Origin: Rhizaria sp. SCN 62-66
Lineage: Eukaryota
NCBI GenBank assembly: GCA_001724265.1
Contig: MEDY01000009.1
Location: forward strand, 62,001-126,000
DNA length: 64,000 bases
Direction: 5' to 3'
A program made the position numbers and the translations under genes. The notes under the pieces are model-generated. The model saw only the letters and a program-made list of their open reading frames with translations, was not told where the DNA came from and did no database searches. Shown piece by piece: positions 1 to 27,684 of the stretch (position 1 is its first letter; every line of letters begins with the position of its first letter).

Positions 1-278
1 TCAGATAAGTGTTTATTATTGGTTGTTGTTGCGCGTAATCAGAGACGCTGTACACACAAAAATATGAGAAAAGAACAATGCAGTTGATTCACGTATGTTG
101 CTTGTGCTTGTAAACGAAAAAGAAACATTACTAAGAAAAAAACACAAATTGACGTGAAAACGGATGAAATTAGAATTGGTATGGGTATTACCGAGAAAGA
201 AACGACGCTTAATACAACAATGACTTGTTTTCCTAATTGGTAATCATGAGTTGTACTGATGAAGCACATGTGCCCATT

Positions 279-3200
279 TTAGAACTTAACTCCAGTCGTG
301 GTGCTCGCGCGAGTGGGCCTGATGTCAGGCAGCGAGCTGGGGACGGCGCCGCTGCCGTTGACGCCACCGGTGGTGCTGGGGCGCGACTGCGGGGCGAACG
401 AGCCCGATAGTGAGGGCCCGCCGCGCGAGCGGAGGTCCATGCGTGCGAGCCCCAGCGCCTGCGGGGACTGCGCGCCGCCCACACCGCCGATGGAGCTAGC
501 GAAGCCGGCGGCGGTGCTGGGCGGCGAGAAGGCCGGGAGCTCGGAGCCGGGCAGCGGGGGCAGCGCGGCGAAGGTACGGCGGCGCAGCGCCTCGAGCTGC
601 GTGCGCAGGAAGGCGATCTCGCGCGACTGCAGCTTGGCGAGGTCCACCAGCTGGCGCCGCATCGTCACCTCCTTCATCTTGCGGCCCTGGCCGGAGCTGG
701 CGTGGTCGCCAATCACGTCCGTCACCGCCGCGGCCGCGGCCGCAGTCGTGCCCGCGCCGGGGGGCGCGTTGACGGTGCCTGCGGCAACGGCGGCGAGCAC
801 GGCCTCGAGGCTCTCGGCCGCGGCGGGCTCGAGTCCCAGGTCGCCCTCGACGTCCATGGCCAGCGCGACGATGTTGGGCATGCCGCCGTCGGCGCCCTGT
901 AGCGCCGTCGCGGTGCCCGGACGGCTGCCGCGGGACATCGGGCGCGGCGCGGCGCGCGAGGCGGGACGCGGGCCGGAGCCGGAGCGCAGAGTGGCGACGT
1001 GCGCGCGCTCCGCCACAGCCGCGGCGAGCAGCTTGACTGTCGAGATAAGTCTCGCGTTCTCGCGCTGGCGCTGGCCCGCGGCCGCGGCGAGCTGTGCCAG
1101 AGTATCCTGGCGCACGCGGAGACGGCCGCCCGCGGTCAGGCGCGCGAAGTCGACCTGGCGCTCGAGCTGCGCCTGCGTGGCGGCCTGCGCGGCTGACTGC
1201 GCGTGCGCGTCCGCCTCCTCAGTTTCAGCACGGAAGAAGGCCTCCGCGTCGCCACCCTCGGCGCCCGGCTCGCCCTTGGCGCTGGCGGCGCGCACCGCTG
1301 CCTGCAGTGACTTAGTTACGCGCAGCAGGTGCAGCTCGGCGGTCAGGTCGGCGGCGTCGGCGCGCTCAAGCTCGAGACGAACCAGGTCGCGCGCAGAGGC
1401 GGCGTTGGCAACCTTACCCTCGGCGCGCTGGCGCATGCGATTGACCTTCTCGTTGCCGGCGACGGTGACGGCGGCGTTGAGCGCGTGGACCCACTTGAGC
1501 GGGCACAGCAGAGCGTCTGAGCGGTCCGGCACCACGGCCACGGCGAGCGCGCCCAGCGCGGACGACGAGGCCTCCTCTGCGACCGTGGTGGCGCCGAAGC
1601 CCGCAGCGTCGAGCTCCACGGAGCCGTTCTGCAGCGAGATGGTGAGTTCGCAGTCGAGCGGGGAGCGCACGGTGCCGGAGACGGTGAGACCCGCAGCGAC
1701 GCAGGCCGGCGAGGGCGCCACGGCGGCCGCGAGGCGCGCGCGCGCGAGACGGCGGCGCGCGCGCTGCATCACGGCGGCGTCCTCGGAGGCCTCGGACACG
1801 GCGAGCGTGAGCGCGTCGTAGCTGTGCGCGAGCTCCATGAGGAAGTCGGCCAGACGCTGGCAGCGCAGCTCGCGCTCCCATTGAGCGCGGCGACGCCTGG
1901 CGAGCGTGCGGCGCCACTCGGACGGGCCCGTGCCGGCAGCGGCGCCAGCGGCAGCAGCGGCGACCGCGGCGGCAGCGAGGTCGTCGTCGGCCGAGTCGGA
2001 CGAGGTCGCGCCCGCGGCGTCGGGGTCGGCGCTGGCAGCGTCGGTCATCCACGCCAGCGCGTCGCCCGCGGCCGCGAGGCCGGCGCCGGCCGTGGCGGCG
2101 GCACCGGGGACAGCGACGACCGCAGCCGGGTATGGGTAGAGGAACGGCAGCGGCGCAGACATGGCGGCGGTCACCGCGGCGGCGAGAGCTGCGGCGGCGG
2201 GGCCGGAGGCAGCGGTGCCGGGCGGGGCAGACGCCGCAGCGGCAGCGAGGCCGGTGGTGACCGCGGAGGCGGCGGCGAGCGCGACGGCGACGTTGGTGGA
2301 GCCGAGCGAGGGCAGGGCCGCGGACGCCAGCGGCGCGGTGAGCACCGAGACTGGGTGCCACTGCATCGCGGGCGACAGGCTCGCGGCCACGACGCCCGCG
2401 CCGGCACTGCCAGCACCGCCGGCGCGGCTGCGGGGGCCGCCGCGAGCGGAGCCGGTGCGCGCGCCAGAGAGCGCAGTCGCGGCGCGGCCAGTACGGGTCG
2501 CGTTGACCGAGCTACCAGCAGCCGCGGCGGCCGCGGCGGAGGCGAATGCGCCGCCCGTGCCGCCGTGGCTCGAGGCGATGGCACGGGCGCCGTACGCGGC
2601 GAGCACGTGCCAGAGCGGCGACAGCGGCGTGCGCGTGAAGGTCGCAGCGCCGGCCGCGGCTGGCGCGGCGGTGAAGAAGGGCGCGAGGATCGCGGCCAGT
2701 GGCACCGGCGCGGCGGACGGAGAGGCCATGTGCAGCGCGGCGACGGGGCCCGACTGCGCGCCGTAAAGCAGCGCGTGCGCCGGCGACGCCCACGGCTGGC
2801 GCGCGCCAGGCAGCGTGAGCGGCGCGTCGCTCTGCACAGCGGACGTCGCCGTGGACTGCGACGCACCGGAGAGCAGCGCGCGGACCTGCGCGGTGAGCGG
2901 GCCCGCGGTAGTGTTGACCGCGGCCGTCGAGGCAGACGCGACGACGCCACCGTCCATCATGCCGTCGGCGTCGCCGTCGGGGCTGGCCCCGCTGGCGGCG
3001 TCCTCGTAGGGCGCGCCCGTCGCGGGGTCGATAGGCACCGCGGCGGCCACGGGCACGGGATAGTGCGCGACCATGACAGCGCCCAGCGCTAGCACCGACT
3101 GGTACAGCAGCGCGTGCGTGAACACGGGCGGACGGCGGCGCTGGCGCACCCACTTGAGGCCCGCGTCGACCATGGTGGGCACCGCGGCAGCGGGGACGAG

Positions 3201-6200
3201 GATCGTCGCCTCAGAGGTCAGGTCGCGGCGCATGCTGCGGTCCGCGTCCGCCGCGGCGGCCACGGCGCTGTACAGCGCGCGCGCGCCCGACTGCAGCAGC
3301 ACGGCGGCGTGGCCCAGCGCGGCCTGCGCGGTGTGGCGCTCGCGCTGGAGCGCGCCGCAGCGGGCATTGACCAGCGCGGTCTCGGTGGCGAGCTGCTCGG
3401 CGCGGACGGCGTCGCGCGCAAGCCCGGCGACGGCGAGCTCGTGCTCGAGCACCGCCTTGACAAACACCACGCGCGCCTTGGCCAGCGAGGTGAGGTGCGC
3501 GGTGAAGCGCTTGACGACGGCGGCGACGTCGGAGCGAAGCTTGGCAAGCTCCGTCTGCAGCACCTTGCGGCGCTTCTCGCGATCGTCCTGCACGCCGCGC
3601 AGCTTCTTCTCGTACGCCGTGTAATCGATCGTTTGCTGCTCGTTCAGCAGCGACACGTCCACCGTGCCGTCGGGGTTCAACACGATCACGCCCTCCGCGG
3701 CGGCGGCGGCAGCGGCAGCGGCAGCGGCGGCGGCGGCCATGTGGGGCGGCAGCGAGGGCGGTGGCGGCACGGGCTCGGCGGGCGCCTCGTCGCGGCCCTC
3801 AGCGGCAGCCAGCGCGGCGGCCTCCGCGTCGACCATCCACTCAGGCTTAGCCTTGTCGAGCTCGGCCACCCACACGTCGACCACGGACTGCACGATGCCG
3901 GCCACACCCGATTGCAGCTGTCCACCACGCAGCATCTGCTGCAGGCCGCGCTGCGGGTCCGCGCCGTCGTCGGCGTCGCCCGCGGCGGCGCGGCGCGCGG
4001 CCTCCTCGGCCTGCTGCTTGGCCGCGGCGGCGCGCTCCTTGGCCGAGAGCACCTTGGGCGCCTTGATCGCCGCGTCGGGCACGGTCAGCACCAGCAGCGG
4101 GTCCTCGCGCTCGTCCTGCAGCGGCGTGAAGAGCGGCACGGCGGCCGCAGGCGTTGCGCCGGCGGCGTCGCCCGCGCCCGGCAGGATGTGCCCGTGCGCG
4201 GCAAGGTGATCCTGCGCCAGCCGCAACAGCTCGACCTCGGCCTGCGCCTCGCGCACGCGCCGCGTCTTGTCCGCGACGACCTCGCAGTCGCGCTTCTTCT
4301 GCGCCGCAGCCTGCTCGACCAGCGCGTTGAAGGCGCGCTGGAAGCCCAGCATGCGCGCGCGCAGCAGCACAGCCTGTGTGCGCTTCTGGCGCGGCGACAG
4401 GCACTCGAGCGGGTGCATCAGCGCCGGCAGCGGGATTCCCGACATGGGGCCCGACGCTGACGCCGCCGAGGAGCCGTTGCGGTCTCCGGCAGACACGTCG
4501 TCGTCGTTGTCGGCGCGGCGGCCCGTCTTGGCGGCGGCACCCTCGTCGCCGTCCGCACCGTCGCCGTCCGCGTCACCGGTGGACGCGGTGGCGGCGGCGG
4601 AGGCGCGGGCGTTCTTGGCGGCATTCTTGCCCGCCGCAGCGCCCTTGGCACCGGCAGCGCTCTTACGCGCGCCAGAGCCGCCCGCGGCGCCGTCGGCGTC
4701 CTCCTCCTCGGCGGCCTCGGCGTCGGGGCGCAGGATGCGCGAGTCGTAGCACTGCTGCAGCGGGTCCGGCATCGTCACCGGGGAGGCGTTGAGCACCCAC
4801 TGCGCGCGCTGCGTCAGCGTCCACGGCCGCCACAGCGCCGTTGCCACGTGCGAGCCGCCGCCGTTGGCCGCGGAGGCCGCGCCCGCGCCGGCGCTCGCTC
4901 TCGCCCGCGCTGCAGCGGTCAGGACAGTGCCCGCGGAGGCCGAGCCGTTGCCGCGGGAGGACTCCTGCATGGCAATGGCCTGGCAGTACCAACGCTGCTC
5001 CATCGAGGCCATGAAGCGCAGGTGCAGCACCTGCGCCGTGCGGCGCTGCTCGTCGGCCGGCACGCGCCGCAGCGGGAAGTTGGCCACCTCGACGGCGGGC
5101 ACGGGCGCCGCGGCCGCGGGGGCGCCGCCAGGGGAGGCGAAGGACGGCGCGGGCGCGGCGGGGGCCGGCAGTGAGGTCATCGAGACGACGACCTTGCCCA
5201 TGACCTCCATGCCATCGACGCACTGCGCCTTGATGCGGTGCGCAATCATGCGCCGCGCCACGATCGCGCGCTCGGCGGCCTCGCGCACGCGCACCACGGC
5301 GGCCGCGGCCCGGCGGCGCAGCGCGGCCGCGAGCGCGACGTCGACGGTGAACTCGGCCAGCGGCAGCCGCTCGAGCGTGCCCGCGCGCTCGTTGCGCGCC
5401 ACCAGTCCCATGAACGCCTTGCGGAACTTGGCCAGCCCGGAGACAACGGCGTCGCGTGCGGCAGTCGCAGCGGCGGCGGCTGCCGCGGCATTGGCGCGCG
5501 CGATGGCAGCGGCGGCCGCGGAGCTCGCAGCGCCATCGCCGTTCGCAGCGGCGCCGTCGGCGTCGTCAGCGTTAGCGCCGTTGACGCGGTCGAGCGCGGC
5601 CAGCGCGGCGTCCTGGTCCGCGGCCTCGGCGAGCCCTGCGAGCACGCCGCCGTAGCCCAGTGACGCGCGGCGGCGGCTCGACTGGAAGCCGCCCGCGGGG
5701 GCTGCAGCAGACGCAGCGGCGGCTGCCACGGCGGCGGCCTGCGCGGCGGCAGCGCCCTCGGGGTCGTCATGCGCCGAGATGGACGCGGCGGTCGCGGCGG
5801 CGGCGGCGGCGGCGGCGGCGAGCTCCTTGGCCGAGGCGCTGACGCCGATGGGGCCCGTGCGCAGCGTGACCAGCGGCATCGCGGAGGCCGGGGCGGCGGC
5901 AGCAGGGGCGTTAGCGGCCACGGCGGCGGCGGCGCTGCCGGGTGCGGGCGCGGCGGGCTCGCTGGGCGCGGCCGAGACAAGCTCGACAGCGGAGTTGAGG
6001 GTGACCTCAGCGTGCGCCATCGAGACCGAGCCCCAGACCGCAGCGGCGATGCCCGGCGGCAGCACGGGGCCCACCGCAGCGGAGCCAGAGCCGGAGCCAG
6101 AGTTGCGGCTGGCGGGCGCGGGGATGCAGAGCGCGTGGCGGCTCAGCGCGGTAGCCAGCACGTCAAGCGTCTGCGCGCGCACCGAGGCGGGCGTGCGGAC

Positions 6201-9200
6201 CGCGGCTGCGGCGCGCGTGGCCAGGGCGGAGCGCATCGCGATGGCCGACTGGGCCGCGGCGGCGGCGCGGCCGTGGAGGCCGGTGTTCTGCAGCGCCGCG
6301 TGCGCGCGCACAAGCACCTTGCTCATGTCCCAGACCAGCGCGGCGCCCTCGCCGTCCACGGCGTCGGCGCGCGCGGCCGCGGCGGCCAGCGCGTCGGCGG
6401 GCGCGGTCGCGGGCAGCGCGCCAAAGGCCGCGGGCGCGGCAGCTGCGGCAGAGCCCGTGGTGGCGAGGTAGCGGCCCTCAGCGGTGAAGGCCAGCGACGC
6501 GGCGGCGCCAGTCAGCGCGGCGGCCACGGCGCGCGCGTTGGCGCGGCCGCTGGCGGGGAGCGCGGCGGGGAGCGCGGCGGACAGCGCGGCGCCGGCGGCG
6601 GGCGCGTGCGCCGAGAAGGCCATGAGGCAGCGCAGCGCGACGGTACGTGTGGGCCGCGAGTTAAGCGCGTAGCCGCCGCCCAGGTGCACGCCGTAGCACA
6701 GCGGCGCCAGTGCCTCCTGCTCGTGCGCCGCGCTGGCGGCCGCGGCGGCGGCGGACTGCAGCGAGCCGTCGGTGGTGAGCACGAACGAGTTGCGGCGGGG
6801 CGCTCTGGCCAGCGCGGCGGCCGTGATGCCTGCGGTGGCGTCCTCCCCGTCCTCGTCGCCGTCGTCATGGTCGCTCTCAGACGGCGGCGCGGTGCCCGCC
6901 TCCTCGGCGGCCGCGATCGCGGCGGCGCGGCGCTCGGCGACGGCGCGCACGCGGGCGGCCTTGTTTGCGGCGACCGCGGCGGCCTGGCGACGCGTGGCCA
7001 GCGCGCGCGCGGCGGTCATCATGAGCGGCGCCGACAACGCCGCCTGCTGCTGCTGCAGCTGCGCAGAGAGCTGCGCGGCGTCGCCCCCGGGCAGCGTGAC
7101 CGACACGTCGCCGCCGCCCAGAGCCGCGACGCCCGAGAGCGTGGCGGCCGTGAGCAGCGAGGCCGCGGCGGCCGAGGCCGAGGACGAGGAGCCGACAGCG
7201 CCGATGAGCCCCGGCGTCGTGGTCACGCCCGTCGCCGCGGCCGCGGTCGCCGTGGTGATGTTGTGCAGCGCCGTGCTCGCGCACGTCTCGGGGTCTGCGA
7301 TGTCCACGCCGCGGATCGCCAGGGGGCGCCCGCCGTCGGCGCTGGTCGGGGACCGCGGGCCGCCCGCAGACGACGCCGCGTTGGCGCCCGCGGCGGCCGC
7401 GGCCACGGGTCCGGGGTCGACGGCCGCGAGCGTGACGGTGCCGTCGGCCGCGGCGACGGCAAAGAGCGAGAGCCCGGGGAAGGCGTGCGAGAAGGGCGCG
7501 AAGGCGGCCGCGAGGGGCAGCGCGGGCATGGCGTCCGACTGCGCGGCGAGACACAGGCGGCCGTCGGGCAGCACCTGAACGGCGCGCAGCACGCGGTCTG
7601 CGCACAGCAGCAGCGCGAAGCTCAGCGCGGCGTCGGCACCTACGGGCACCGGGGCCGCGGGGCCCGCCGCCGTCGCCGGCGGTTGCAGCGGCGCGTGCAT
7701 GGCGGCGGCCGAGGGCAGCGTCGCGGCAATGTGGTGCGGCACGGCCTCGGCGGCGACGGCAGCGACGGGCAACACCGTCGCCACGGGCCGCAGCGCGGAG
7801 CGGCGCAGCGCCAGGTCGCGCGACGACGGGTGGTGGTACGCTGAAGGCGGGCGCGCGACGATGACGCGGCCCTTGGTCGTCAGGAACGCGATGCGCTCGA
7901 AGAACACGCCGCCGCCTACGGCCGCGGGCGCAGCGGCGGACGCGGCGGCGCCGTCAGACGCGGAGCCAGCTGCGGGCGCGGCGGCGGTGGCAAGGGGCGC
8001 GGAGGCGGGCAGCCAGCGCACGATGTGGACGCTCTCCTTGCGCATCGCGTCCGCGGCCACCTGCGCGGCCGCGGAGTAGCCCGCTGCAGTGACCGTGGGC
8101 GCGCCCGACACCACCACCAACCTCGCGCTGTCGCAGACACTCGCGGGCGCGCTCGCGGCGCCCGCGGGCTTGTCCGAGCCCAAGCGCGCGCCGCGGGCCG
8201 GGGCCGGCGCGGGGGGTGCGTCGGGGTCGGTGAGCAGCTCGTCGTGGTTGGCCACGGCGAGGACCTCGAGGTCGGCGGTGCGGATGAACACGGTGCAGTC
8301 GCGCGAGGAGACCGCGAAGACGTCGCCGTCGGTGTTGAACACAACGGACCGCACCAGCCCGGCCGCGTCCACGTCCGCGCCAGCGTCAGCGCCGCTGCCA
8401 CTGACAAGCACAGCATCAACGGCGGAGCCGGCGCCGGCGGAGGACTGGGGGTCGTCGCCGAGAGGAAACGCGTCGTCGTCGGCTGCGGCGGCCACGGCGG
8501 AGGCGGCGACCGCGGAGGCGGCGTCGGTGGCGGGCGTGTGCGCGGGGAAGAGGCGACGCGACCACACGAGGCGCATCGCGGTGGGCTCGGAGATGTCGAC
8601 GACGTTGACGCCGCCGTGCAGCGTGCCCACCACCAACAGCGAGCCGTCGGGGCACACGGCGGCCGCGGTGGCCGGCGCCGACGTGGGGTACACGCCCAGC
8701 AGCGCGCGCGGCGCCACGGCCCATACGGCCACGGGCGCGGTCAGCCCCCACGTCAGCACGCACGACGACGAGTCGCGCGCCGCGGCGCGGGCCAGCGCGC
8801 CCGACTGCGCGGCCCCCGCGGCGCCGTTCGCGCCGGCGCCCGTGCCGCCGGTGGCCGCGTTGAGCTCGTTGGTCGCGGCGGCCGCGGCGAAGGCGGCGGC
8901 GGTCGCGCGCGTGCGGCGGGCGCGCGCGAGCGCCTCTGCGGCCGCAGAGCCCGGCGCTGCAAAGGGCAGCGCGATGGTGTTGGTGCCGCGCGACCAGGGC
9001 GCCAGTGCAGAGGCCGCCAGCTGCGCCTGCTGCAGCTGCGTGTCGCCAGCGGTGCCGGGGGCCGCGACCGCGTTCGGCGGCATCAGAAAGGGCGTCTTGC
9101 TGTTGCTGCCGCTGCCAGTAGAGACAGTGGCGGCGGCAGAGGCGAGTGTGAGCGCGTACATGTGCTGCAGACCGGGCGCCGCGGCGAGCGGGAAGGTGCC

Positions 9201-12200
9201 GAGCGCGGTGACGTCGAAGATGGAGCCCAGCAGCAACGCCACAGCGGCGTTAAACAGGCGCTCCTCTTGCTCCGCAGTCGCCGCCAGCGCCACGGGGTCA
9301 ATGTCCTCGTCGTCGTCGCCGTCACCGTTGTCATCGTCGTCGTCGTCCTCGCCGTTGTTGTCGTCGAGCGAGCCGGCAATGACGCCGTCGCCCGCGGCGG
9401 CCGCGGCCTCGGCGGCGCGCCGCGCGCGGCGGCCCCCGCGCGCGTTGCGGCGCGCGATGGTGTGCAGGTCGAGCGAGGGCAGCGCGGCGCCGAGGCCCTG
9501 GAGGATGCGCACGGCGGCCGCGCCCGAGGGCGGCAGCGCGGCGATGGCGGCCGGGGAAAGCCCGGTGGACGCGGCTGCAGCGGCCTCGGCGGTCAGATGC
9601 GAGGCGCCCGAGTGGCGGCGCGCGGTGCTGCCCGCGCCCGCGGCGGCGCTGGCGGCCTCGGCTGCGGCCAGCGCGGCGGGGGCGGCGGCGAGCGCGGCCG
9701 TGGCGGCCGAGTTGGCGGCCGCGGCGGGATCCGGCGAGTTGAGAAAGCTCTTCCAGTACGCAAAAGCGTCCGCGACGACGCGGCGCGCGTGTGTCAGCAC
9801 GCGCGGCTGGCCGACAACTTGCACGCGCCGCAGCAGCCCACCCGCGGTGAGCACCACGTACGACGTGAAGTCTGGCGCGAACGCCAGCGACGCCACGGCC
9901 GAGCTGTTAGCGGCGGCGGGGAACGCGGAGGACGCAGACAGCGGCGCCGTCAGCGCGGCGGCCATCAGCGCGGCGGGGCTGCCGGGCGCCGCGGCGGGCG
10001 ACAGCACGGCGGCCGCGAGCGTGGCCAGCGCGGCAGTGGGGGGCGCGTAGAAAGGCGGCAGAACGCCGCCTGCGCCCGCGGGCAGCGTCGGGGGCGCGCC
10101 TGCGGTGCCTGGCGCGGCCTCAGCCTCGTCGTGCGTCGCCGTTGTGGCGGCGTTGGCGGCGGACTCAGCAGCGGCGGGCGAGGGCAGGCGGTGTCGGTAC
10201 ACGCAGAGCGCGCCCAGCGCGGCGGCCGCGGCGGCCGGGGCGGGCAGCACGCGGCCGGCGGCCCCGGGGCACGGCAGCGGCGGCGGCGAGGGCAGCGCGG
10301 CCACCCACGCCGCCGCGGCGTCGGCTGCCGACAGCGACGGCGCCAGCGGTCCGTCTCTTGTCGCGGCCGCGGTGACCGAGGCCGAGACAGCGGTGGTCGT
10401 CGTCGCCGTCGCAGACGCGGTCGCCGCAGCAGCGCCGTCAGTCGAGGGGCCGTAGGGCACGAGCGCGGTACTGTTGGCCGCAGCGGCCGCGGCAGCAGCA
10501 GCAGCAGCAGCAGCAGCGGCAGCGGCGGCGGCGTGCGAGGCCGCGAAGCCGGGCGGCGGTGCAAAGACCTGCGCCAGCGCGGCGAGCGAGACCCACACGG
10601 CCGTGTCGTTGTGCGTGCCGACGAGCAGGTGCGCACGGCACAGCGCCAGCGCGGGCGCGTGCGCCGCCAGGTGCGCCAGCGCGGCGGCGGGCGCGGCGCG
10701 GGCCAGAGCGGGCAACAGCGCGGCGGCGGGGGCGGCCGCACAACCGGCGGGGGCGCCGGCGGCGGCGGGCGCGGCGGCGAGGTCGAGCAGTGCGGCCAAG
10801 GGCGAGATGGGCTCGTCGGCGTCCGCGGGGTCCGCGTTGAGGCGGGCCAGCGCGCGGGCCGTGGCGGTGCGCGCGCGCCACAGCGCGGCGTCGCCGTCGA
10901 CGTCGGCGAGCGCCAGCACCGTCGGCACGGACAGCGCCACCAGCGCGCGCACCGCGCGGGCCGCCGCCGAGACGCGGCCGTCGCCGCTGCCGGCGTGCGC
11001 GCTTGATGAGTCCATCGCGGCGGTGGCGGCGGCGGCGGCGGGGGAGCCGGCGTGGAGCACATGGTTGATGACGCCGGCCTCGGCCTCGGTGAAGAGCACC
11101 GTCGACACGCTGTGTGCGGCGCCCGACGCCGCGGCCACGGTCGCGTTGCCCGAGCACGCGGCGCCGGAGACGAGCGCCGAGGCCTGCACGAACGGCAACT
11201 TGCGCGGCGCGTCAAACGCGTGCTGCTCGCCGTCGTCGGCCGCGCTGTTAGCGAGCGCGTTGCTGACCGGCGGCGCGAGCATGCCGGCCGTGGGACGCAG
11301 CGGCTCGGAGCCGCTGGCCAGCGCGAGCGGCGTCGCGCCCGCCGCGGGCGTCACGCGCGGGACCACCAGCGCGGGCGCGGCGACCGTGAGCACGGCGCCC
11401 AGCACCGTCGACAGCGCCACGGTCCCCGCCGCGATCCACGCGTGCGCCGCCACGGACCGCGCGGCGGCGGCGGCGACTGCGCCGGGCAGCGACGTCAGCG
11501 CGGACAGGTACGGCGTCGCTACGGCCAGCGCGTCCAGCTCCGCGGCGTCCAGCGCGGGGCTCGCGGCCAGCGCGGCGGCGGCGGCGGACGCCTGGCTGTC
11601 GCGGTGGCCGCGGCGGCTGCCGCCATGACGACCGCGGCTATGGCGATCGAAGCCGTCGTCGTCTCTGGGCGAGCCCAGGTCCGAGCCGGAGCCGCTGGCG
11701 CGGTACCGCGGGTTGTTCTCATCCGCGTCGTCGTCCGTCTCGCCGCCGCTGTGATCGCGCTCGCCCTGCTGCGGCGCGGCGGCCGCGGCCTCAGCGCGCG
11801 CGTGGCGCTGGACCGACGCGCGCACGGTCTCGGCGAAGACGTCAGCGGCGGCGGGGCCCGAGGTGCGCTGGCGTGCGAGCTGCTCCTCGGCGCCGGGCAG
11901 CGCGACGTCGACGGCCGTAAGCACAGGGTTGAAGGCGCCGCGCAAGAAGGGGCCCACGGACCAGAGCGTGGCGCGGCCGCACGCGGTGATCGTGAGCAGC
12001 TCGCCGCGGTTGAACGGGTTGAACGACACCACACACGCCGCGCGGGCCTGCGCGCGCGCCAGGGAGCCCAGGGCCGCCGTGCTGGCTTGCGCCGCGGCCG
12101 CTGCGGCGGCGTCGGCGGCGGTCGTGTCACCGCCCAGCGCGCTCATGGCGGCCGCCGCGGCCGCGGGGTCGTCCGACTCGGCCGCAGCGGCCGCAGCGTC

Positions 12201-13091
12201 GGCGACGGCAAGCCCCGCAGCGCGCGCGGTGGCGGCGGGCGCAGTCAGCGAGGCCGCGATGGCGTCGGCAAGCGCGCCATCGACGTTGGCAGCGGCAATG
12301 AGCTCGAAGCAGTCGGCGTTGAACTGGCCCTGCGCGACGGCGTAGGACGCGTAGGTGGGCGCGGCGGCGGACCGCAAGGAGGCTGGGAGCGTGGGGAGTA
12401 GCTCACCGGGCACAGGGGACGTCGGCGTCAGCGCGTAGAGATACAGCGCGGTGCGAGCGCCCGCGAGGAGTACCGCGAGCTGCGTGCCGTCGCGCGAAAC
12501 ATCGAGCCCGGCCACGCGTGCGCCCGCCGGAAGGGAGAACGAGGCGTGCAGCGCGCGGGAGGGGAAGCCATAGACGGTGATGGCGGCACCTGCGGGCGAG
12601 TGCGTCGCGCAGAAGACGCGCGACTCGTCGTGCAGAGTCGTGTTGCCACTGCCGCCGTCGCCTGTGTTCGCGTAGCCACGAGTGGCAGACTTGTTGCTGC
12701 TGTCGTAGCCGGGGCGGGCAGCGGGGTCGGCGGGGCCCGAGGGGTCGGCCTCGGCAAGGAGCGGGGAGACGCAGAAGGCGTCGAAGGTGGTGCCGAGTCC
12801 GAACGAGATGTGACGCTGCTCGCGAGTGGAGCACGACAGTAGCGCGAGGACGTTGCCGGCCTTGAAGCATAGCACGTCGTCGCTGAGGTACGAGACGCGC
12901 TTGTGAGAGATAGCAAGCGCCTCCTTGAGGACAACAAGCGAAGATCCGTCCGCGGGGTCGTCGAAGCCGCCCTGTGAGGCGTCGGCACCGCTGCCGCCCG
13001 CGGCCGAGGACGACGAGGGCGAGAAGGGGGTCGTGGGGCCCGAGAAGACGGGCGCGGCCGGCAGCGCAGCTACGCGCGGGTTCGAGCTCAT
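279..13091 (-). CDS. CFAP43: Cilia- and flagella-associated protein 43 (WDR96)-like, about 4270 aa, heavily expanded by Ala-rich inserts
   Basis: Uninterrupted ORF ending TAA (279-281); first ATG at 13091 (the track uses a non-ATG start at 13124). Blocks resembling CFAP43, in order: N-terminal RVSYLSDDVLCFKAGNVLALL; WD-like ATAAAVCPDGSLLVVGTLHGGVNVVDISEP and VRSVVFNTDGDVFAVSS; LERLPLAEFTVD; HRIKAQCVDGMEV; EVANFPLRR; LMHPLECLSPRQKRTQAVLL; KPEWM; coiled coil YEKKLRGVQDDREKRRKVLQTELAKL; C-terminal RQLVDLAKLQSREIAFLRTQLEALRRRTFAAL (cf. the CFAP43 end EVERLRMKTFPAL). Confidence 0.85.
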   Translation of the reverse strand: MSSNPRVAALPAAPVFSGPTTPFSPSSSSAAGGSGADASQGGFDDPADGSSLVVLKEALAISHKRVSYLSDDVLCFKAGNVLALLSCSTREQRHISFGLGTTFDAFCVSPLLAEADPSGPADPAARPGYDSSNKSATRGYANTGDGGSGNTTLHDESRVFCATHSPAGAAITVYGFPSRALHASFSLPAGARVAGLDVSRDGTQLAVLLAGARTALYLYALTPTSPVPGELLPTLPASLRSAAAPTYASYAVAQGQFNADCFELIAAANVDGALADAIAASLTAPAATARAAGLAVADAAAAAAESDDPAAAAAAMSALGGDTTAADAAAAAAAQASTAALGSLARAQARAACVVSFNPFNRGELLTITACGRATLWSVGPFLRGAFNPVLTAVDVALPGAEEQLARQRTSGPAAADVFAETVRASVQRHARAEAAAAAPQQGERDHSGGETDDDADENNPRYRASGSGSDLGSPRDDDGFDRHSRGRHGGSRRGHRDSQASAAAAALAASPALDAAELDALAVATPYLSALTSLPGAVAAAAARSVAAHAWIAAGTVALSTVLGAVLTVAAPALVVPRVTPAAGATPLALASGSEPLRPTAGMLAPPVSNALANSAADDGEQHAFDAPRKLPFVQASALVSGAACSGNATVAAASGAAHSVSTVLFTEAEAGVINHVLHAGSPAAAAATAAMDSSSAHAGSGDGRVSAAARAVRALVALSVPTVLALADVDGDAALWRARTATARALARLNADPADADEPISPLAALLDLAAAPAAAGAPAGCAAAPAAALLPALARAAPAAALAHLAAHAPALALCRAHLLVGTHNDTAVWVSLAALAQVFAPPPGFAASHAAAAAAAAAAAAAAAAAAANSTALVPYGPSTDGAAAATASATATTTTAVSASVTAAATRDGPLAPSLSAADAAAAWVAALPSPPPLPCPGAAGRVLPAPAAAAAALGALCVYRHRLPSPAAAESAANAATTATHDEAEAAPGTAGAPPTLPAGAGGVLPPFYAPPTAALATLAAAVLSPAAAPGSPAALMAAALTAPLSASSAFPAAANSSAVASLAFAPDFTSYVVLTAGGLLRRVQVVGQPRVLTHARRVVADAFAYWKSFLNSPDPAAAANSAATAALAAAPAALAAAEAASAAAGAGSTARRHSGASHLTAEAAAAASTGLSPAAIAALPPSGAAAVRILQGLGAALPSLDLHTIARRNARGGRRARRAAEAAAAAGDGVIAGSLDDNNGEDDDDDDNGDGDDDEDIDPVALAATAEQEERLFNAAVALLLGSIFDVTALGTFPLAAAPGLQHMYALTLASAAATVSTGSGSNSKTPFLMPPNAVAAPGTAGDTQLQQAQLAASALAPWSRGTNTIALPFAAPGSAAAEALARARRTRATAAAFAAAAATNELNAATGGTGAGANGAAGAAQSGALARAAARDSSSCVLTWGLTAPVAVWAVAPRALLGVYPTSAPATAAAVCPDGSLLVVGTLHGGVNVVDISEPTAMRLVWSRRLFPAHTPATDAASAVAASAVAAAADDDAFPLGDDPQSSAGAGSAVDAVLVSGSGADAGADVDAAGLVRSVVFNTDGDVFAVSSRDCTVFIRTADLEVLAVANHDELLTDPDAPPAPAPARGARLGSDKPAGAASAPASVCDSARLVVVSGAPTVTAAGYSAAAQVAADAMRKESVHIVRWLPASAPLATAAAPAAGSASDGAAASAAAPAAVGGGVFFERIAFLTTKGRVIVARPPSAYHHPSSRDLALRRSALRPVATVLPVAAVAAEAVPHHIAATLPSAAAMHAPLQPPATAAGPAAPVPVGADAALSFALLLCADRVLRAVQVLPDGRLCLAAQSDAMPALPLAAAFAPFSHAFPGLSLFAVAAADGTVTLAAVDPGPVAAAAAGANAASSAGGPRSPTSADGGRPLAIRGVDIADPETCASTALHNITTATAAAATGVTTTPGLIGAVGSSSSASAAAASLLTAATLSGVAALGGGDVSVTLPGGDAAQLSAQLQQQQAALSAPLMMTAARALATRRQAAAVAANKAARVRAVAERRAAAIAAAEEAGTAPPSESDHDDGDEDGEDATAGITAAALARAPRRNSFVLTTDGSLQSAAAAAASAAHEQEALAPLCYGVHLGGGYALNSRPTRTVALRCLMAFSAHAPAAGAALSAALPAALPASGRANARAVAAALTGAAASLAFTAEGRYLATTGSAAAAAPAAFGALPATAPADALAAAAARADAVDGEGAALVWDMSKVLVRAHAALQNTGLHGRAAAAAQSAIAMRSALATRAAAAVRTPASVRAQTLDVLATALSRHALCIPAPASRNSGSGSGSAAVGPVLPPGIAAAVWGSVSMAHAEVTLNSAVELVSAAPSEPAAPAPGSAAAAVAANAPAAAAPASAMPLVTLRTGPIGVSASAKELAAAAAAAAATAASISAHDDPEGAAAAQAAAVAAAAASAAAPAGGFQSSRRRASLGYGGVLAGLAEAADQDAALAALDRVNGANADDADGAAANGDGAASSAAAAAIARANAAAAAAAATAARDAVVSGLAKFRKAFMGLVARNERAGTLERLPLAEFTVDVALAAALRRRAAAAVVRVREAAERAIVARRMIAHRIKAQCVDGMEVMGKVVVSMTSLPAPAAPAPSFASPGGAPAAAAPVPAVEVANFPLRRVPADEQRRTAQVLHLRFMASMEQRWYCQAIAMQESSRGNGSASAGTVLTAAARARASAGAGAASAANGGGSHVATALWRPWTLTQRAQWVLNASPVTMPDPLQQCYDSRILRPDAEAAEEEDADGAAGGSGARKSAAGAKGAAAGKNAAKNARASAAATASTGDADGDGADGDEGAAAKTGRRADNDDDVSAGDRNGSSAASASGPMSGIPLPALMHPLECLSPRQKRTQAVLLRARMLGFQRAFNALVEQAAAQKKRDCEVVADKTRRVREAQAEVELLRLAQDHLAAHGHILPGAGDAAGATPAAAVPLFTPLQDEREDPLLVLTVPDAAIKAPKVLSAKERAAAAKQQAEEAARRAAAGDADDGADPQRGLQQMLRGGQLQSGVAGIVQSVVDVWVAELDKAKPEWMVDAEAAALAAAEGRDEAPAEPVPPPPSLPPHMAAAAAAAAAAAAAAEGVIVLNPDGTVDVSLLNEQQTIDYTAYEKKLRGVQDDREKRRKVLQTELAKLRSDVAAVVKRFTAHLTSLAKARVVFVKAVLEHELAVAGLARDAVRAEQLATETALVNARCGALQRERHTAQAALGHAAVLLQSGARALYSAVAAAADADRSMRRDLTSEATILVPAAAVPTMVDAGLKWVRQRRRPPVFTHALLYQSVLALGAVMVAHYPVPVAAAVPIDPATGAPYEDAASGASPDGDADGMMDGGVVASASTAAVNTTAGPLTAQVRALLSGASQSTATSAVQSDAPLTLPGARQPWASPAHALLYGAQSGPVAALHMASPSAAPVPLAAILAPFFTAAPAAAGAATFTRTPLSPLWHVLAAYGARAIASSHGGTGGAFASAAAAAAAGSSVNATRTGRAATALSGARTGSARGGPRSRAGGAGSAGAGVVAASLSPAMQWHPVSVLTAPLASAALPSLGSTNVAVALAAASAVTTGLAAAAASAPPGTAASGPAAAALAAAVTAAMSAPLPFLYPYPAAVVAVPGAAATAGAGLAAAGDALAWMTDAASADPDAAGATSSDSADDDLAAAAVAAAAAGAAAGTGPSEWRRTLARRRRAQWERELRCQRLADFLMELAHSYDALTLAVSEASEDAAVMQRARRRLARARLAAAVAPSPACVAAGLTVSGTVRSPLDCELTISLQNGSVELDAAGFGATTVAEEASSSALGALAVAVVPDRSDALLCPLKWVHALNAAVTVAGNEKVNRMRQRAEGKVANAASARDLVRLELERADAADLTAELHLLRVTKSLQAAVRAASAKGEPGAEGGDAEAFFRAETEEADAHAQSAAQAATQAQLERQVDFARLTAGGRLRVRQDTLAQLAAAAGQRQRENARLISTVKLLAAAVAERAHVATLRSGSGPRPASRAAPRPMSRGSRPGTATALQGADGGMPNIVALAMDVEGDLGLEPAAAESLEAVLAAVAAGTVNAPPGAGTTAAAAAAVTDVIGDHASSGQGRKMKEVTMRRQLVDLAKLQSREIAFLRTQLEALRRRTFAALPPLPGSELPAFSPPSTAAGFASSIGGVGGAQSPQALGLARMDLRSRGGPSLSGSFAPQSRPSTTGGVNGSGAVPSSLPDIRPTRASTTTGVKF
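10476..10532 (-). repeat. Trinucleotide tract encoding a 19-Ala run in CFAP43
   Basis: (GCA/GCG)n on the + strand; protein reads SH(A)19NS. Confidence 0.9.
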
Positions 13092-14122
13092 CTGCGAGTG
13101 TGAATCAGGTCTTGCGTTTAGCAAGGAAACGTCGCGCGCGAACTAGAACGGCCGATGGGTTGAATAACTTTAATCCGTGAACGAGTTTGTGAGAAGTGCA
13201 ACGACTGGTCAGTAGGTTAACGGACAGAAGTACAAAGGTCGGTGAGCAATACGTGCGAGAAAGTAAGCATACGCGCAATCTTAAGATACAACAATACACA
13301 ATCACGACTTAAGGCGTGCCAAACTCTTTAAACATGAGATACTGACTACAGGCAGGTCTTGCAAGTGATGCGTTAGCGTTCATCTTGGTCGACCGAGAAG
13401 CACACACGAAAGTAGAGTGTTCATCGGGATAGATCCGTCTAGTAAAAGAGCGACAAGTATGGTAGTAGTGTCCAATCACTATTTGCCATATGTTTTAATT
13501 ATGTGCCTATACAACACTGCCACGGGTCACTGTGCGTACGTTTGTGTCCAAACCGTTTTTCATTTTTTTCAAACCTGCAAGACGAGTCGTTGGACAATTT
13601 TCACGAACAGGCTGTCTCGACATCGTCTCAGCCGCGGTCACAAAACCATGTAAAGGACTGTATTACGGCAGATTCTTACATGGTAAAGTTGCAATTTGAA
13701 GAGATTATAGAAATTTAGCTCATACTTATTGGGAGCTGGACTATTCTCCTGTTAACGGACTATGTACTCCGATTGAGTCTGCTTTTAAGGACACTCCGGA
13801 GCCATCTTTGGGGTCTTCTTGGCCCGTCACCCCGGTTCAACTTTAAACGTATCATGCTTTGTCCACATTCCCTCAATGATTTTATATTTTGCTGGGCCGT
13901 TTTTATTGTTAAGTATTTCAACGAAAACACTTGCTTAAAACCTCTCTGGTCCTTTCTGAATATTCGTATTGGCTAGTTTTGCGAGCTTAAGTAGGATCAC
14001 CTTCCGCCCTCCACGCCGCCGCCAACGAGGTCACCCCGGTCCCCCGCGCGGCCTCACACGCACCGGACCTTTTTCGTCCGCGCCCGCACCGCGCCTCTTG
14101 CGCTTTGCGCCCCGCGTAGCCC
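13092..14122. promoter_or_regulatory. AT-rich divergent (head-to-head) spacer, CFAP43/ThrE-like; probable bidirectional promoter and 5' UTRs
   Basis: Sharp GC drop between two outward-pointing start codons; no credible ORF. Confidence 0.55.
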
Positions 14123-17100: not shown

Positions 17101-18221
17101 CCATCCCAGCAGCGTCCAGGACTCCCCCGCCGCGGTCGCGCAGCCCGCGCCCGAGTCGGCCGCCGTGCAACCCGCGCAGCCGCACGGCGACGCAGTTGTC
17201 TCGGTGACCTCCGGCGGCGGCGCGGCGGCCACGCGGCCGGCCTCGCAGTCGATCCCGCGCGCGGGCGCCGCGGTGCCGCCGATCATCCCCGACAACGTAT
17301 CGGTGCCAGGCACCACGGGTGCCATGCCGCTCGTGCACCAGCAGTACGCACAGCAGCAACAGCAGCAGCAGCAGCTGGCGCTCGCGGGCCCGTCGTTCTC
17401 GCAGCTGAGCTCGGTGGCGATGCCGGTGACGAGCAGCTCGCTCATGTCCCAGTCGGCGCTGCCGCTGTCCACCCTCGCGGGCGTCCCCGTCTCCGTCACC
17501 GGCGCCGCCCCCCCTGCTGGCTCTGCTGCCGCTCCCAGCGCTGCCGCTCCCAGCATTGCCGCTGCCGGCGCGGCGCTGCCCCCGCTCGACACCACCTCGG
17601 TCGCGGCACGCGTTCGGCAGGCTGCGCGCGAGGTGGCCCGCGAGAAGCGCCGCAAGCGGATCCTGCACATGCAGCGCGTGCAGCAGCATCTTCAGCAGCA
17701 GCAGCAGCAGCAGCGCCAGGCGGCCGCTGCGAGCGCCGCTGCCGCCGCTGCGGCCGCCGCGTCTGCGGTCGGCGGGTCCGATAGCGACTACTCGTTCAGC
17801 GGCACCGACACGGACGATGACGACGAGTTCATGCGGCCGCCCGGCTACCTTGGCGGCGGGTCAGCCGGCACGGGCGGCTTCCGCGCGATGCCGCTGCTTA
17901 ACGCGCGCAAGGCCGTGGTGGCGCGGTCCACGGCCGTGAGCTCTCACGTCGGCAATATCGCCGACAAAGACAAAGAGAAGGACAAGGACAAGGTCAAGGA
18001 CAGCAAGGTGACGAGCACACCCACGCTCACCGCTGCCCCGGCGCCCGGCTCTGGCTCTCTGGGCCCCGCGCAGCCCGCCGCCGACGCCACCATCGCTGGC
18101 ACGGGCCTCACCGCAGGCCAGATCGCACTGGGCGCCGTGGCGAACGCGATCGCGCCAGACACGTTGCCGCAGTACATCGCAGCGCTGATCTCGTCCCAGC
18201 AGCAGCAGCAGCAGCTCCAGC

Positions 18222-18257
<36 letters not shown>

Positions 18258-26361: not shown

Positions 26362-27684
26362 TTAGAGGTACTTGGAGGCGTCCCAGACGGTGATGCGGCC
26401 GTCGAGGCCCGAGGTGGTGAAGTGGCCGCGCGTCTGGCGACCGAGCTTGAGGCACGTGATGGTGTTGGTGTGCGTGGTGAAGGCGACCTTGGTGGCGACC
26501 TCCTCGCCGAACTTGGTGCCCTGGTACGCGGCCTGGCGGAACTTAGCAAAGGCCGCCGAGGTCGCCGACTGCGCGGGGCCCGCCGCAGCCTTGGCGTCGG
26601 ACTCCTTCTCAGCGTAGCCCTTGAAGGACCACTCGCCGTTGCCGCCGCGGGTGAAGAAGGCGGGGTTGTTGTCGAAGCCGACGGCGACGATGGCGTCGTC
26701 GGTCAGGAACTCGACCTGCAGGAAGGGCAGGTCGCGCAGCTTCAGCGTCTGCACGTCAGTGACAGACTTGTCCAGGTCCACAAAGTGGATGGTCGAGCCG
26801 TGGCCGGCGAACACCACGCGGCGGCCGTTGGGGGAGAAGGCGGCGGCGTTGACCCAGCCGTTGGCCTGAGAGCGAGAGAATGAGTGAAAAGAGAAAGATA
26901 TATGCGACGGTGTGAGTCATAAAAAAAAACAAAAAACGAGGAACGTAGTCAGCAGGAAAACAATCTATGTGGTTCTTCTCATCGAACCAAAGTGAAGTAA
27001 AGACTAAAGAGCTAGAGAGTATTGCAACGAAGAGACAAGACGCACCTGGTCGTACTCGACGAGGGTCTCGCCGAAGGTGTAGAGGTCGGGGGTGTTGAAG
27101 ATGGCATCGTACTCGCCCGTCTTGGCGTCGAGCGCCTTGTCGAACACGGACACAATGCGGCACTTGTAGTCGGTGCCCGCGGTGACCATGAGCTGGGAGT
27201 TGGGCGAGAAGGCCGCCGTGAGGATGGTCGACTTGTGGTTCTTACGGACGATCTTGCTGATCCACCAGTCGGACGACGCCTCGTGGTTGCACACGGCGAT
27301 CTGCTTCGAGCCAGACGGCACGGCGAACTTCTTCTGGCAGGGGGACCACACGGCGCCCGTGGCGGCGCGGTTGATGCGGAGCATGCAGAGAGACGGCTTC
27401 CAGATGTTGTCGGCGGCGTTGTAGGTCCAGACGTAGGCATTGCGGTCGTGCGAGGCAGTGAGGATCTGGTTGTCGGTGTTCCAGTCGATGCCAGAGACAA
27501 TGGAGGTGTGCTCGGCGATGGTGTGGAGCTTAGTCCACTTCTTGGGGTCGGAGCCCGAGGAGCAGTCGTAGATGTGGACCTCGGGGGAGTTGGGGCAGAT
27601 GGCGACCATCTTGCCGTCGGGGCTGAAGGTGTGCGCGGTGATCACCTCCGCAAGGCCCTTCTCCTCGGCAACCATCAAGGACAT
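26362..27684 (-). CDS. ARPC1: Arp2/3 complex subunit 1 (p41-Arc), WD40; join(27684..27046,26865..26362), 380 aa
   Basis: Motifs AICPNSPEVHIY, ILTASHDRNAYVW, WKPSLCMLRINRAATGAVWSP, KKFAVPSGSKQIAVC, DWWISK, HKSTILTAAFSPNS, GTDYKCRIVS; after a phase-0 intron GWVNAAAFSPNG, LPFL, THTNTITCL, FTTSGLDGRITVW. Ends TAA. Confidence 0.95.
26866..27045 (-). other. Spliceosomal intron in ARPC1 (180 nt, phase 0)
   Basis: Donor CAG|GTGCGT, T-rich body, pyrimidine tract ending CTCTCAG|GCC; splicing restores YDQ-ANGWVN. Confidence 0.92.

Follow-up and report, generated by a model that had tools for sequence, protein, structure and literature searches.

The window analysed here is a stretch of 64,000 nucleotides, in which a single minus-strand frame stays open over 12.8 kb. 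The following genes and frames were located in it:

279-13124, minus strand: CFAP43 ORF, a single open frame of 4281 codons
279-13091, minus strand: likely CFAP43 coding sequence, from the ATG at 13091 to the TAA at 279-281, encoding an inflated CFAP43 orthologue of 4270 aa
14120-25621, plus strand: ThrE-like frame of 3834 codons, its ThrE domain split by ~1550 low-complexity codons, with an in-frame TAG at 16055-16057
26365-27810, minus strand: ARPC1, compact, with an intron at ~26866-27045 (GTGCGT..CAG, GC ~0.40)
31123-40815, minus strand: giant ORF without family, open frame
42093-42868, plus strand: RPL38, with introns at ~42096-42279 and 42341-42698 (both GTACGT..CAG)
43685-45216, minus strand: NIT2-type C-N hydrolase, with an intron at 44329-44471 (GTACGT..TAG, GC 0.38)
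45724-53085, plus strand: giant ORF without family, open frame
53410-63999, minus strand: giant ORF without family, open frame

Two kinds of gene lie together in the window, as an earlier sequence-only reading had noticed: giant Ala-rich single ORFs that carry filler, and compact intron-bearing genes that carry none. The ordinary introns that it had ascribed to the compact genes were located and are canonical GT..AG introns. The other giant ORFs are also enriched in Ala (20-28%). The three without family have no in-frame stop, against 19-147 stops in their other frames. Neither whole nor in 19 overlapping pieces did they match any Pfam family, comparison with PDB sequences gave no match, and the one piece compared with the Atlas gave no usable match; the labels 'PPR-like' and 'Clp1-like' proposed for such frames thus have no Pfam or PDB match behind them. 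For the ThrE-like gene, the proposed inflation stands, but a fully open frame does not, owing to the TAG; an open frame can thus not be demonstrated for all inserts of this kind in the genome.

Identity and size of the CFAP43 gene

The first ATG of the CFAP43 ORF is residue 12, and the resulting single-exon product is ~2.6 times as long as the CFAP43 chains of solved structures (1665-1682 aa), in good agreement with the length of about 4270 aa, the absence of a stop and the roughly 2.5-fold inflation first claimed for it. GC content is 0.69-0.79 across six 2-kb windows spanning positions 1-12000. Stops are scarce in every frame, with off-frame ORFs of up to 993 codons in the window; the coding frame runs through 4282 codons with no stop but the last, against 49, 45, 19, 28 and 101 stops in the other five. 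GC3 lies between 0.80 and 0.99 in 43 of 43 windows of 100 codons, and the codon-position pattern is maintained all along the ORF. Overall, 28% of the residues are Ala.

The Pfam family CC_Cfap43 (PF25828) matched the protein above its gathering score, in five stretches (E 1.1e-33, 116.7 bits, cut-off 27), and propeller and WD40 families matched below their cut-offs (22.7 bits versus 90; 14.7 versus 27). A PDB search at E up to 0.1 listed three CFAP43 sequences, which align to the ORF in colinear stretches (E 4.9e-11 to 3.8e-6), and no chain of the paralogue CFAP44, which the library may lack. Our own profile, made from a 24-sequence alignment of normal-sized homologues, environmental or named, matched at E 5.3e-133 through nine colinear blocks, all in one reading frame, running from profile position 9 to 1603 of 1607. 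Block edges follow this profile alignment and are good to roughly ten residues; E values of the N-terminal blocks lie between 2.6e-13 and 0.051, several of them being weak matches (E 0.0011, 0.051). Global alignment to the profile put just 873 residues on profile positions. None of the N-terminal 2518 residues was placed by hmmalign; sites in that part were located through the hmmsearch blocks and through BLASTP against P0157, a second inflated orthologue. An alignment of a window fragment with 29 full-length homologues spread the fragment over columns far apart and was left aside. To judge from its sequence, the gene is a genuine full-length, intronless CFAP43 orthologue; the identity and block order originally proposed are confirmed by the family and profile matches, and alignment to CFAP43 orthologues gave a colinear match over the full length.

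An exhaustive homologue search found 151 proteins at E up to 1e-3, the best at 37% identity and none of them thus closely related. A word-indexed search among shorter proteins with residues 2540-3320 gave no match, low-complexity words having probably swamped it, and a metagenome scan with the window's own fragment yielded 596 pattern matches, of which none was confirmed. The nearest named CFAP43 relative is from a chytrid. For the signal peptide peptidase, the nearest named relatives are from oomycetes and Nannochloropsis.

Conserved blocks, inserts and the coding-like character of the filler

The conserved blocks and the main inserts, all on the minus strand, are arranged as follows:

12435-12929, minus strand: conserved block 1, aa 66-230, profile 9-127 (E 9.8e-8), putative N-terminal beta-propeller start; aligns to P0157 16-240
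12045-12434, minus strand: insert, aa 231-360, 130 aa, 41% Ala; matches the 118-aa P0157 insert after profile 130
11376-12044, minus strand: conserved block 2, aa 361-583, profile 143-235, weak (E 0.0011), filler within; core 365-410 aligns to P0157
9909-11375, minus strand: insert region, aa 584-1072, 489 aa, 36% Ala; island 799-855 resembles P0157 581-637
9804-9908, minus strand: conserved block 3, aa 1073-1107, profile 292-326, a weak match at E 0.051; BLASTP pairs 1084-1123 with P0157 676-719
8799-9803, minus strand: insert, aa 1108-1442, 335 aa, profile site 326-339; 217 aa there in P0157
8475-8798, minus strand: conserved block 4, aa 1443-1550, profile 339-444, putative WD40 blades (E 2.6e-13; Pfam WD40-type matches below cut-off)
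8349-8552, minus strand: Ala/Asp-rich insert, aa 1525-1592, 68 aa, in a putative WD40 blade loop; wholly in the colinear contig 8187-8591 of RNA run X1
5571-8474, minus strand: aa 1551-2518, where 968 aa correspond to ~264 profile positions; putative second propeller with much filler, sharing islands 1593-1631 and 1743-1905 with P0157
3915-5570, minus strand: conserved block 5, aa 2519-3070, profile 708-1062 (E 1.7e-58), Cfap43 coiled coil start, with smaller inserts (for example aa 2718-2848)
3129-3653, minus strand: conserved block 6, aa 3158-3332, profile 1086-1251 (E 4.7e-28); best match to CC_Cfap43 and the PDB CFAP43 chains
1539-3128, minus strand: insert region, aa 3333-3862, 530 aa, 30% Ala, profile site 1259; 399 aa in P0157, 44-124 aa in ordinary homologues
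978-1538, minus strand: conserved block 7 (aa 3863-3946) and block 8 (aa 3976-4049), separated by an insert of 29 aa; colinear X1 contigs 891-1303 and 1421-1861
558-698, minus strand: conserved block 9, aa 4143-4189, profile 1556-1603 (E 2.6e-16), C-terminal motif ...LRRRTFAAL; 65% identity to P0157

The blocks are separated, as had been described, by segments rich in Ala, Gly, Pro and Asp, which amount to 2807 codons (A 31.2, L 8.5, G 8.3, S 8.3, P 7.9, D 4.7 %). The claim that filler intrudes even between WD40 strands, here putative ones, also holds: residues 1525-1592 stand where P0157 has 8 residues. This filler contains no in-frame stop; the other sense frames contain 30 and 32, and the antisense frames 10, 16 and 63. 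Position-specific composition predicts 16.5 stops (probability of none ~7e-8), and a single substitution would turn 306 of the 2807 codons into a stop. Filler and blocks have GC3 values of 0.90 and 0.91, and their synonymous choice is nearly identical (GGC 0.84 and 0.80, CGC 0.81 and 0.81, respectively). Tandem repeats (27 rows) cover only ~1.1 kb of the 12.8 kb by the sum of merged rows, which rules out recent microsatellite slippage as the source of most filler.

A second inflated orthologue and contigs of a poly(A) run over the gene

P0157 (locus L001) has 3559 aa, encoded by a 10,677-nt ORF in DNA of ~53% GC. Its frame has no in-frame stop, against 129, 141, 145, 94 and 156 stops in the other frames. 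Its inserts make up 1912 codons, again free of stops (against 66 and 67 in the two remaining sense frames), where 39 stops would be expected over 1911 insert codons. BLASTP between the two proteins gives 11 colinear segments, with 25-45% identity over the longer aligned blocks. Inserts occur at the same profile sites, with window and P0157 lengths of 131 and 89 aa at site 874, 350 and 399 at 1259, 89 and 92 at 1559, and 92 and 152 at the C-terminus; after profile 130 they measure about 130-131 and 118 aa. Elsewhere, the gaps between matched segments differ greatly in length (674 versus 257 aa; ~69 versus 8 aa). Islands of similarity lie within the insert regions at 799-855 (E 7e-9), at 1743-1905 (E 2.5e-25) and in the C-terminal tail (E 7e-5), and no similarity is detectable between the two proteins in the large inserts after profile 130, 1259 and 1559. 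Ordinary homologues also vary at such sites: among eight others aligned, six have an insert of at least 20 aa at site 874, and six at site 1259.

The P0157 filler (A 15.5, S 12.6, T 8.3 %) is not of very low complexity, its entropy being 3.91 bits versus 4.08 elsewhere in the protein. Comparison of these two lineages, with 31% Ala in the filler at 78% GC and 15.5% at 53% GC, suggests that filler composition follows genome GC. On the evidence of these sequences, P0157 also shows that the gain in length would have preceded the base bias or been independent of it.

Three sequencing runs were compared with the gene. Of the sampled words, 0.32 occur in X1, a poly(A) metatranscriptome, and just 0.08 in X2 and X3, which may be DNA. 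Reads were aligned at 90% likeness, a noisy setting at which most of the 1662 X1 pieces are partial low-complexity matches. Among the 8 X1 pieces listed, 5 lie on the CFAP43 gene, all of them colinear and gap-free, and 4 of these 5 cross a boundary between block and filler in our own block map (891-1303, 1421-1861, 3853-4260 and 8187-8591). These contigs are short (326-441 nt) and could stem from library DNA or unspliced precursor. X1 contigs show 16 single-base differences, of which 10 affect the third position of a codon and 8 leave the amino acid unchanged. In X3, one contig lacks 3 nt in frame at 10659. One X1 contig, of depth 3.1, is a base short at 6423, in filler, which would break the frame, and a lone contig at a depth below 5 may be in error. 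Fifteen joints were listed, with 240 further ones; those listed have sides of 20-26 letters and all come from X2 or X3, and we disregarded them. Between the divergent genes, depth is 0 in all three runs in the bin 13341-14007, a gap that carries no evidential weight.

Probable growth of variable loops and its alternatives

The explanation that we consider most probable, with good confidence, is that this is a real CFAP43 whose variable loops have grown by in-frame filler that is kept in the mRNA and translated. It would be low-complexity expansion of an ordinary kind, though extreme in degree, in a very GC-rich microbe. The variable loops and linkers would have been lengthened through in-frame insertion by ~2800 residues, at sites that include the loops of the WD40 propellers and the breaks of the coiled coil. 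The extra sequence would remain in the mRNA and be translated, most likely forming disordered loops off a conserved scaffold of propeller and coiled coil. Much of this growth is probably old: inserts occupy matching sites in a deeply diverged relative whose genome is 53% GC. Later, strong GC pressure on weakly constrained codons would have made the filler rich in Ala, Gly and Pro. We infer that the inserts are translated and disordered, that GC pressure caused their composition and that the protein has its place in the axoneme. The features of compositionally driven low-complexity expansion were all found here: in-frame, stop-free filler, host codon usage, variable sites and a composition that tracks GC. 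The sequence-only reading had left two alternatives, tolerated expansion or removal of the inserts; the former is favoured by the open frame, the block-like codon usage, the variable sites and P0157, and the latter gained no support.

Exitron-like or other non-canonical splicing might remove the inserts, or a part of them, from the mRNA and leave a working protein of nearly normal size; we regard this as very unlikely. All inserts preserve the frame, as do many exitrons when retained, according to passages of PMC4484396 and PMC10985678; moreover, the ThrE-like neighbour needs some bypass of its TAG, and rare spliced forms would be compatible with the contig data, given the 15 joints listed and the 240 further ones. 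However, no segment of the ORF looks like an intron of the local type, for which the four verified in neighbouring genes served as reference (GTRCGT..YAG ends, GC 0.38-0.63). The lowest GC over 90 nt is 0.58, inside conserved sequence, so that an intron-like drop in GC is missing; the 12.8-kb ORF has only 5 GTRYGT sites, and of the 12 candidate spans that start from the local 5' splice motif, none is a multiple of 3 in length. A comparison of seven insert boundaries, where the earlier reading had suggested looking for shared motifs, revealed no common motif, residues or GT..AG; the junction residues differ at all seven, and two of the seven 3' boundaries lack an AG within 30 nt. The four boundary-crossing X1 contigs are colinear, and among the 15 joints listed none is from X1. 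Furthermore, under obligate removal 2807 codons would not have stayed stop-free and block-like in codon usage, nor would the 1912 codons in the 53% GC relative P0157.

Removal could instead act on the protein, the inserts being translated and then spliced out in the manner of inteins or clipped by proteolysis. This would fit the open frame, the block-like codon usage and RNA retention, the first two being equally expected if the inserts simply stay. A Pfam search of the 4281-aa protein at E up to 1 found no intein-type domain, only CC_Cfap43 and five WD40/propeller families; the seven boundaries share no residues, and the insert sites are ordinary variable loops, which makes removal unnecessary. 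We know of no precedent for the excision of more than eight protein segments with re-ligation, and hold this route to be extremely improbable. The broader proposition that the inserts are translated yet lie outside the working protein, more than eight segments being excised after translation or removed from some transcripts by signal-poor splicing, is highly improbable. If it were true, a near-normal CFAP43 would reach the axoneme despite the open frame of 12.8 kb in the genome, and only if the inserts prove to be removed would a new mechanism be at hand.

The extra regions might, on the other hand, have a function, as modules specific to this lineage in a tether complex that has been remodelled; their position and length would then be under selection rather than merely tolerated. 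The sites common with P0157 despite 25-45% identity, the close lengths at several of them (131/118, 350/399 and 89/92 aa), the islands of similarity within insert regions and the near-normal entropy of the P0157 inserts all speak for this. It is nonetheless unlikely: the large inserts after profile 130, 1259 and 1559 bear no detectable similarity to P0157, lengths at other sites differ greatly, composition tracks genome GC, and the equal Ala enrichment of the window's other giant ORFs points to a genome-wide process. As for a decaying or unexpressed relic, open merely through the rarity of stops in 78% GC DNA, the scarcity of stops in every frame and the long off-frame ORFs are what it would predict, but the absence of in-frame stops against 19-101 in other frames, nine ordered blocks in one frame with the codon-position pattern throughout, and the contigs of a poly(A) run on the gene make it scarcely credible.

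Under the preferred reading of retained, translated filler, the ~2800 extra residues and the 3559-aa relative would gauge the unstructured mass that the CFAP43 scaffold tolerates and mark the loops that are free to grow. CFAP43 lies where the 96-nm axonemal repeat is crowded and its spacing precise. Parts of PMC5921572, PMC5921573 and PMC6208767 assign CFAP43/FAP43 to the tether/tether-head complex of inner dynein f/I1. The case also calls for caution in annotating very GC-rich, intron-poor eukaryotic contigs, where a giant Ala-rich ORF can be a real conserved gene that all but escapes family searches; three of the window's five giant frames remain without family. A passage of PMC8226300 describes low-complexity sequence being left unmasked, since masking would hide genuine high-GC coding sequence; the inflation of proteins is not a subject of that passage.

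Compared with known CFAP43 proteins, including the solved human chain, the window's orthologue belongs to the same family and has the putative N-terminal WD40-type blocks, the coiled coil and the C-terminal motif in the same order, but differs in its length, its Ala content and its single exon. Exitrons are, in the parts of PMC4484396 and PMC4494720 devoted to them, frame-preserving, coding-like segments inside an exon; the inserts share both properties, whereas no splice signals, boundary motif or spliced X1 contig (among the joints listed) were found. Long uninterrupted exons gain insertions that code for structure-less regions, as sections of PMC12457776 and PMC9825244 relate. Likewise, the window's giant single-ORF genes carry filler and its intron-bearing compact genes none, although the scale here is larger, at thousands of residues per gene. 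The low-complexity inserts of compositionally extreme genomes are, as portions of PMC7534687 describe them, in-frame and translated, follow base bias and are enriched near disordered parts of domains. The Asn-rich tracts of Plasmodium falciparum are similarly in-frame filler with amino acids that follow the base bias; in the window the bias is towards GC, giving Ala, Gly and Pro rather than Asn and Lys, and the filler is mostly cryptic, not homopolymeric.

Identity and extent of the CFAP43 gene

The gene is carried by one long frame, whose conserved blocks were placed with our own profile (24 normal-sized homologues, 1607 positions).

CFAP43 features
279-13124, minus strand: CFAP43 ORF, a single open frame of 4281 codons
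aa 66-230, 361-583, 1073-1107, 1443-1550, 2519-3070, 3158-3332, 3863-3946, 3976-4049 and 4143-4189, minus strand: blocks 1-9, profile match

The first ATG lies at nt 13091 (codon 12) and a TAA at 279-281 ends the frame, which yields a protein of 4270 aa. The terminal stop is the only one in frame, against 49, 45, 19, 28 and 101 in the other five frames, and GC3 is 0.80-0.99 in all 43 consecutive 100-codon windows, exceeding the other two codon positions; the same frame is therefore coding-like from end to end. GC is 69-79% across window positions 1-12000. The gene is overlapped by antisense and off-frame ORFs, the longest of 993 codons (8025-11006, plus strand); we take them to be by-products of stop scarcity at 78% GC, and such long ORFs are a trap for gene callers. 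The gap at 13125-14119, between the divergent CFAP43 and ThrE-like genes, has lower GC (about 0.60 in a 2-kb window) and is probably a promoter region common to both.

The sequence-only reading had named this gene CFAP43, and our searches bear it out. In Pfam the Cfap43 coiled-coil family scored 116.7 bits (E 1.1e-33) vs a cut-off of 27, with propeller and WD40 matches below threshold. A PDB sequence search returned three CFAP43 sequences (9fqr_H8, 8j07_i6 and 9d2f_Y; E 4.9e-11 to 3.8e-6), whose matched stretches, spread from the N-terminus as far as the C-terminal motif, are colinear with the window protein. Residues 2540-3320, used as query in an exhaustive search, yielded 151 proteins with E no higher than 1e-3, mostly of 1500-2100 aa and with a best identity of 37%; the one named protein among nine looked-up homologues is CFAP43 of the chytrid Physocladia obscura. 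Our profile matched at E 5.3e-133 in nine colinear blocks, all in the same frame, spanning profile positions 9-1603 of 1607. Judged by sequence similarity, the assignment is firm for the C-terminal half; two N-terminal blocks are weak in the profile search (E 0.0011 and 0.051) and global alignment to the profile left the first 2518 residues without placement, which makes the call less precise, if still good, for the propellers. The window protein is a member of the CFAP43 family, described in the available portions of PMC5921572, PMC5921573 and PMC6208767 as the tether of inner dynein f/I1.

Coding character and fate of the filler

Outside the blocks lie 2807 codons of filler, which encode 31.2% Ala, 8.5% Leu, 8.3% Gly, 8.3% Ser and 7.9% Pro. 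The blocks themselves are 22.8% Ala, so composition drift affects the whole protein. Tandem Repeats Finder detected 27 short arrays in the gene, summing to about 1.1 kb of 12.8 kb, and the filler is therefore mostly cryptic low complexity rather than fresh microsatellite. Inserts had been said to occur even between WD40 strands; a 68-aa insert (aa 1525-1592) does lie between strands of a putative blade, a place where P0157, a second inflated CFAP43 orthologue, has 8 residues. The filler contains no in-frame stop, against 30 and 32 in the other sense frames and 10, 16 and 63 antisense. Its own position-specific base composition predicts 16.5 (P of none about 7e-8), and a single substitution would turn 306 of the 2807 codons into a stop. 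Synonymous codon choice is alike in filler and blocks (GC3 0.90 and 0.91).

In the RNA search, X1, a poly(A) metatranscriptome, accounts for 0.32 of the words sampled; two other runs, uncertain in kind, account for 0.08. The longest X1 pieces on the gene (891-1303, 1421-1861, 3853-4260, 5158-5477 and 8187-8591) are colinear and ungapped, with 0-11 differences; in our block map, a boundary between block and filler falls inside four of the five, and one contains the whole WD40-loop insert. No X1 joint is found among the 15 joints listed (240 further joints lie beyond those). Single-base differences in X1 (n=16) fall at third codon positions in 10 cases and are synonymous in 8. X1 contigs are short, and precursor RNA or DNA may be their source. 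In one contig, of depth 3.1, a base is missing at 6423 within the filler; this lone low-depth difference is possibly an error.

The sequence-only reading had also allowed that the inserts are removed, by exitron-like or non-canonical splicing or by processing. Four verified introns of the window served as comparison.

Verified introns
44329-44471: NIT2 intron
~26866-27045: ARPC1 intron
~42096-42279 and ~42341-42698: two RPL38 introns

All four begin with GTACGT or GTGCGT and end with YAG; their GC is 0.38-0.63, and three are pyrimidine-rich. Several carry CTAAC- or CTGAC-like branch motifs, and one RPL38 intron directly follows the ATG. The organism has few introns and strong splice signals. 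No segment resembling these introns was found in the CFAP43 frame. Its lowest 90-nt GC is 0.58, in a conserved stretch, it has five GTRYGT sites, and not one of 12 candidate intron spans is a multiple of three nucleotides long. No motif is common to the seven well-placed insert boundaries, and two lack an AG within 30 nt of the 3′ boundary. Pfam at E up to 1 returned only CC_Cfap43 and five WD40/propeller families, with no intein-type domain. The inserts fail the tests run for exitrons and for inteins alike. With a stop-free filler, no local-type splice signals and no boundary motif, removal of the inserts is unsupported, keeping a low probability at the protein level.

A second inflated orthologue

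Among the CFAP43 homologues we recovered P0157 (also P0005; 3559 and 3516 aa, respectively), encoded on a contig of about 53% GC.

P0157 gene and inserts at common profile sites
L001 10001-20677: P0157 ORF, a single ORF
After profile ~130: window ~131 aa, P0157 118 aa
After profile 326: window 336 aa, P0157 217 aa
After profile 874: window 131 aa, P0157 89 aa
After profile 1259: window 350 aa, P0157 399 aa
After profile 1559: window 89 aa, P0157 92 aa
C-terminal tail: window 92 aa, P0157 152 aa

The P0157 ORF has no in-frame stop vs 129, 141, 145, 94 and 156 in the other frames. Its catalase and kinesin neighbours are each single-ORF, and this lineage is likewise intron-poor on L001; within L001 1-28171 the catalase, of the large-subunit type, has 739 codons and the kinesin, with a C-terminal motor, 1750. 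BLASTP aligned the two CFAP43 proteins in 11 colinear segments. The P0157 inserts (1912 codons; 15.5% Ala, 12.6% Ser, 8.3% Thr) hold no stop, against 66 and 67 in the two remaining sense frames and 39 expected over 1911 of those codons; their entropy is 3.91 bits, that of the remaining protein 4.08. Between the two proteins no similarity is detectable in the large inserts that follow sites 130, 1259 and 1559; islands of similarity within inserts lie at 799-855, 1743-1905, 2763-2785 and in the C-terminal tail. Ordinary homologues carry shorter inserts at the same sites, of at least 20 aa in 6 of 8 others aligned at 874 and in 6 of 8 at 1259.

The insert sites would then be permissive loops of the family, which may have grown large long ago in the lineage of the window protein and P0157 and stayed open in two lineages that differ strongly in base composition, the filler's amino-acid make-up presumably tracking the GC of each genome. 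The absence of filler stops, the codon choice shared with the blocks and the insert sites common to P0157 favour the other proposal of the sequence-only reading, tolerated low-complexity expansion. We hold it highly probable that translated filler has inflated the window CFAP43, a real and extreme case that is probably old.

Two gene classes and known parallels

Five giant frames, all 20-28% Ala, lie in the window, CFAP43 among them.

Further long frames
14120-25621, plus: ThrE-like frame, 3834 codons
28610-30400, plus: signal peptide peptidase, single exon, 596 codons stop to stop, 21% Ala
31123-40815, minus: giant unnamed frame, 3230 codons
45724-53085, plus: giant unnamed frame, 2453 codons
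53410-63999, minus: giant unnamed frame, >3529 codons

The three unnamed giant frames have no in-frame stops vs 19-147 in their other frames. They match no Pfam family and no PDB sequence, and an Atlas search with one piece gave no usable match; the labels 'PPR-like' and 'Clp1-like' proposed for such genes are therefore unsupported. They may be conserved genes diluted past recognition, or lineage-specific proteins. For the ThrE-like gene the proposed inflation stands: about 1550 codons separate profile positions 8-83 of its ThrE domain from positions 92-240. A single in-frame TAG (16055-16057, plus strand) among those codons breaks the frame; the gene may be dead, the stop read through, a small intron unrecognised, or the TAG a sequencing error.

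ARPC1, RPL38 and NIT2 proved compact and intron-bearing, as had been described, and no sizeable insert interrupts their alignments to solved homologues. GC3 reaches the same extreme level in the two classes (0.81-0.95). What separates them is codon positions 1 and 2 and the Ala content: of five compact-gene exon pieces measured, four have 2-15% Ala and one has 27%. Such a difference would be expected from GC pressure acting on residues under weak constraint. The signal peptide peptidase is intermediate between the classes, with an A22B domain that takes up 397 residues for 272 profile positions; its nearest named relatives are from oomycetes and Nannochloropsis, and its best match (68% identity) is a metagenome protein.

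In kind the inflation of CFAP43 is ordinary; its degree is what is unusual. As a phenomenon, its filler matches the bias-driven low-complexity inserts of conserved proteins, for instance in Plasmodium, described in the accessible part of PMC7534687. It also matches the tendency of long exons to gain insertions encoding disordered regions, as reported in the sections available of PMC12457776 and PMC9825244.
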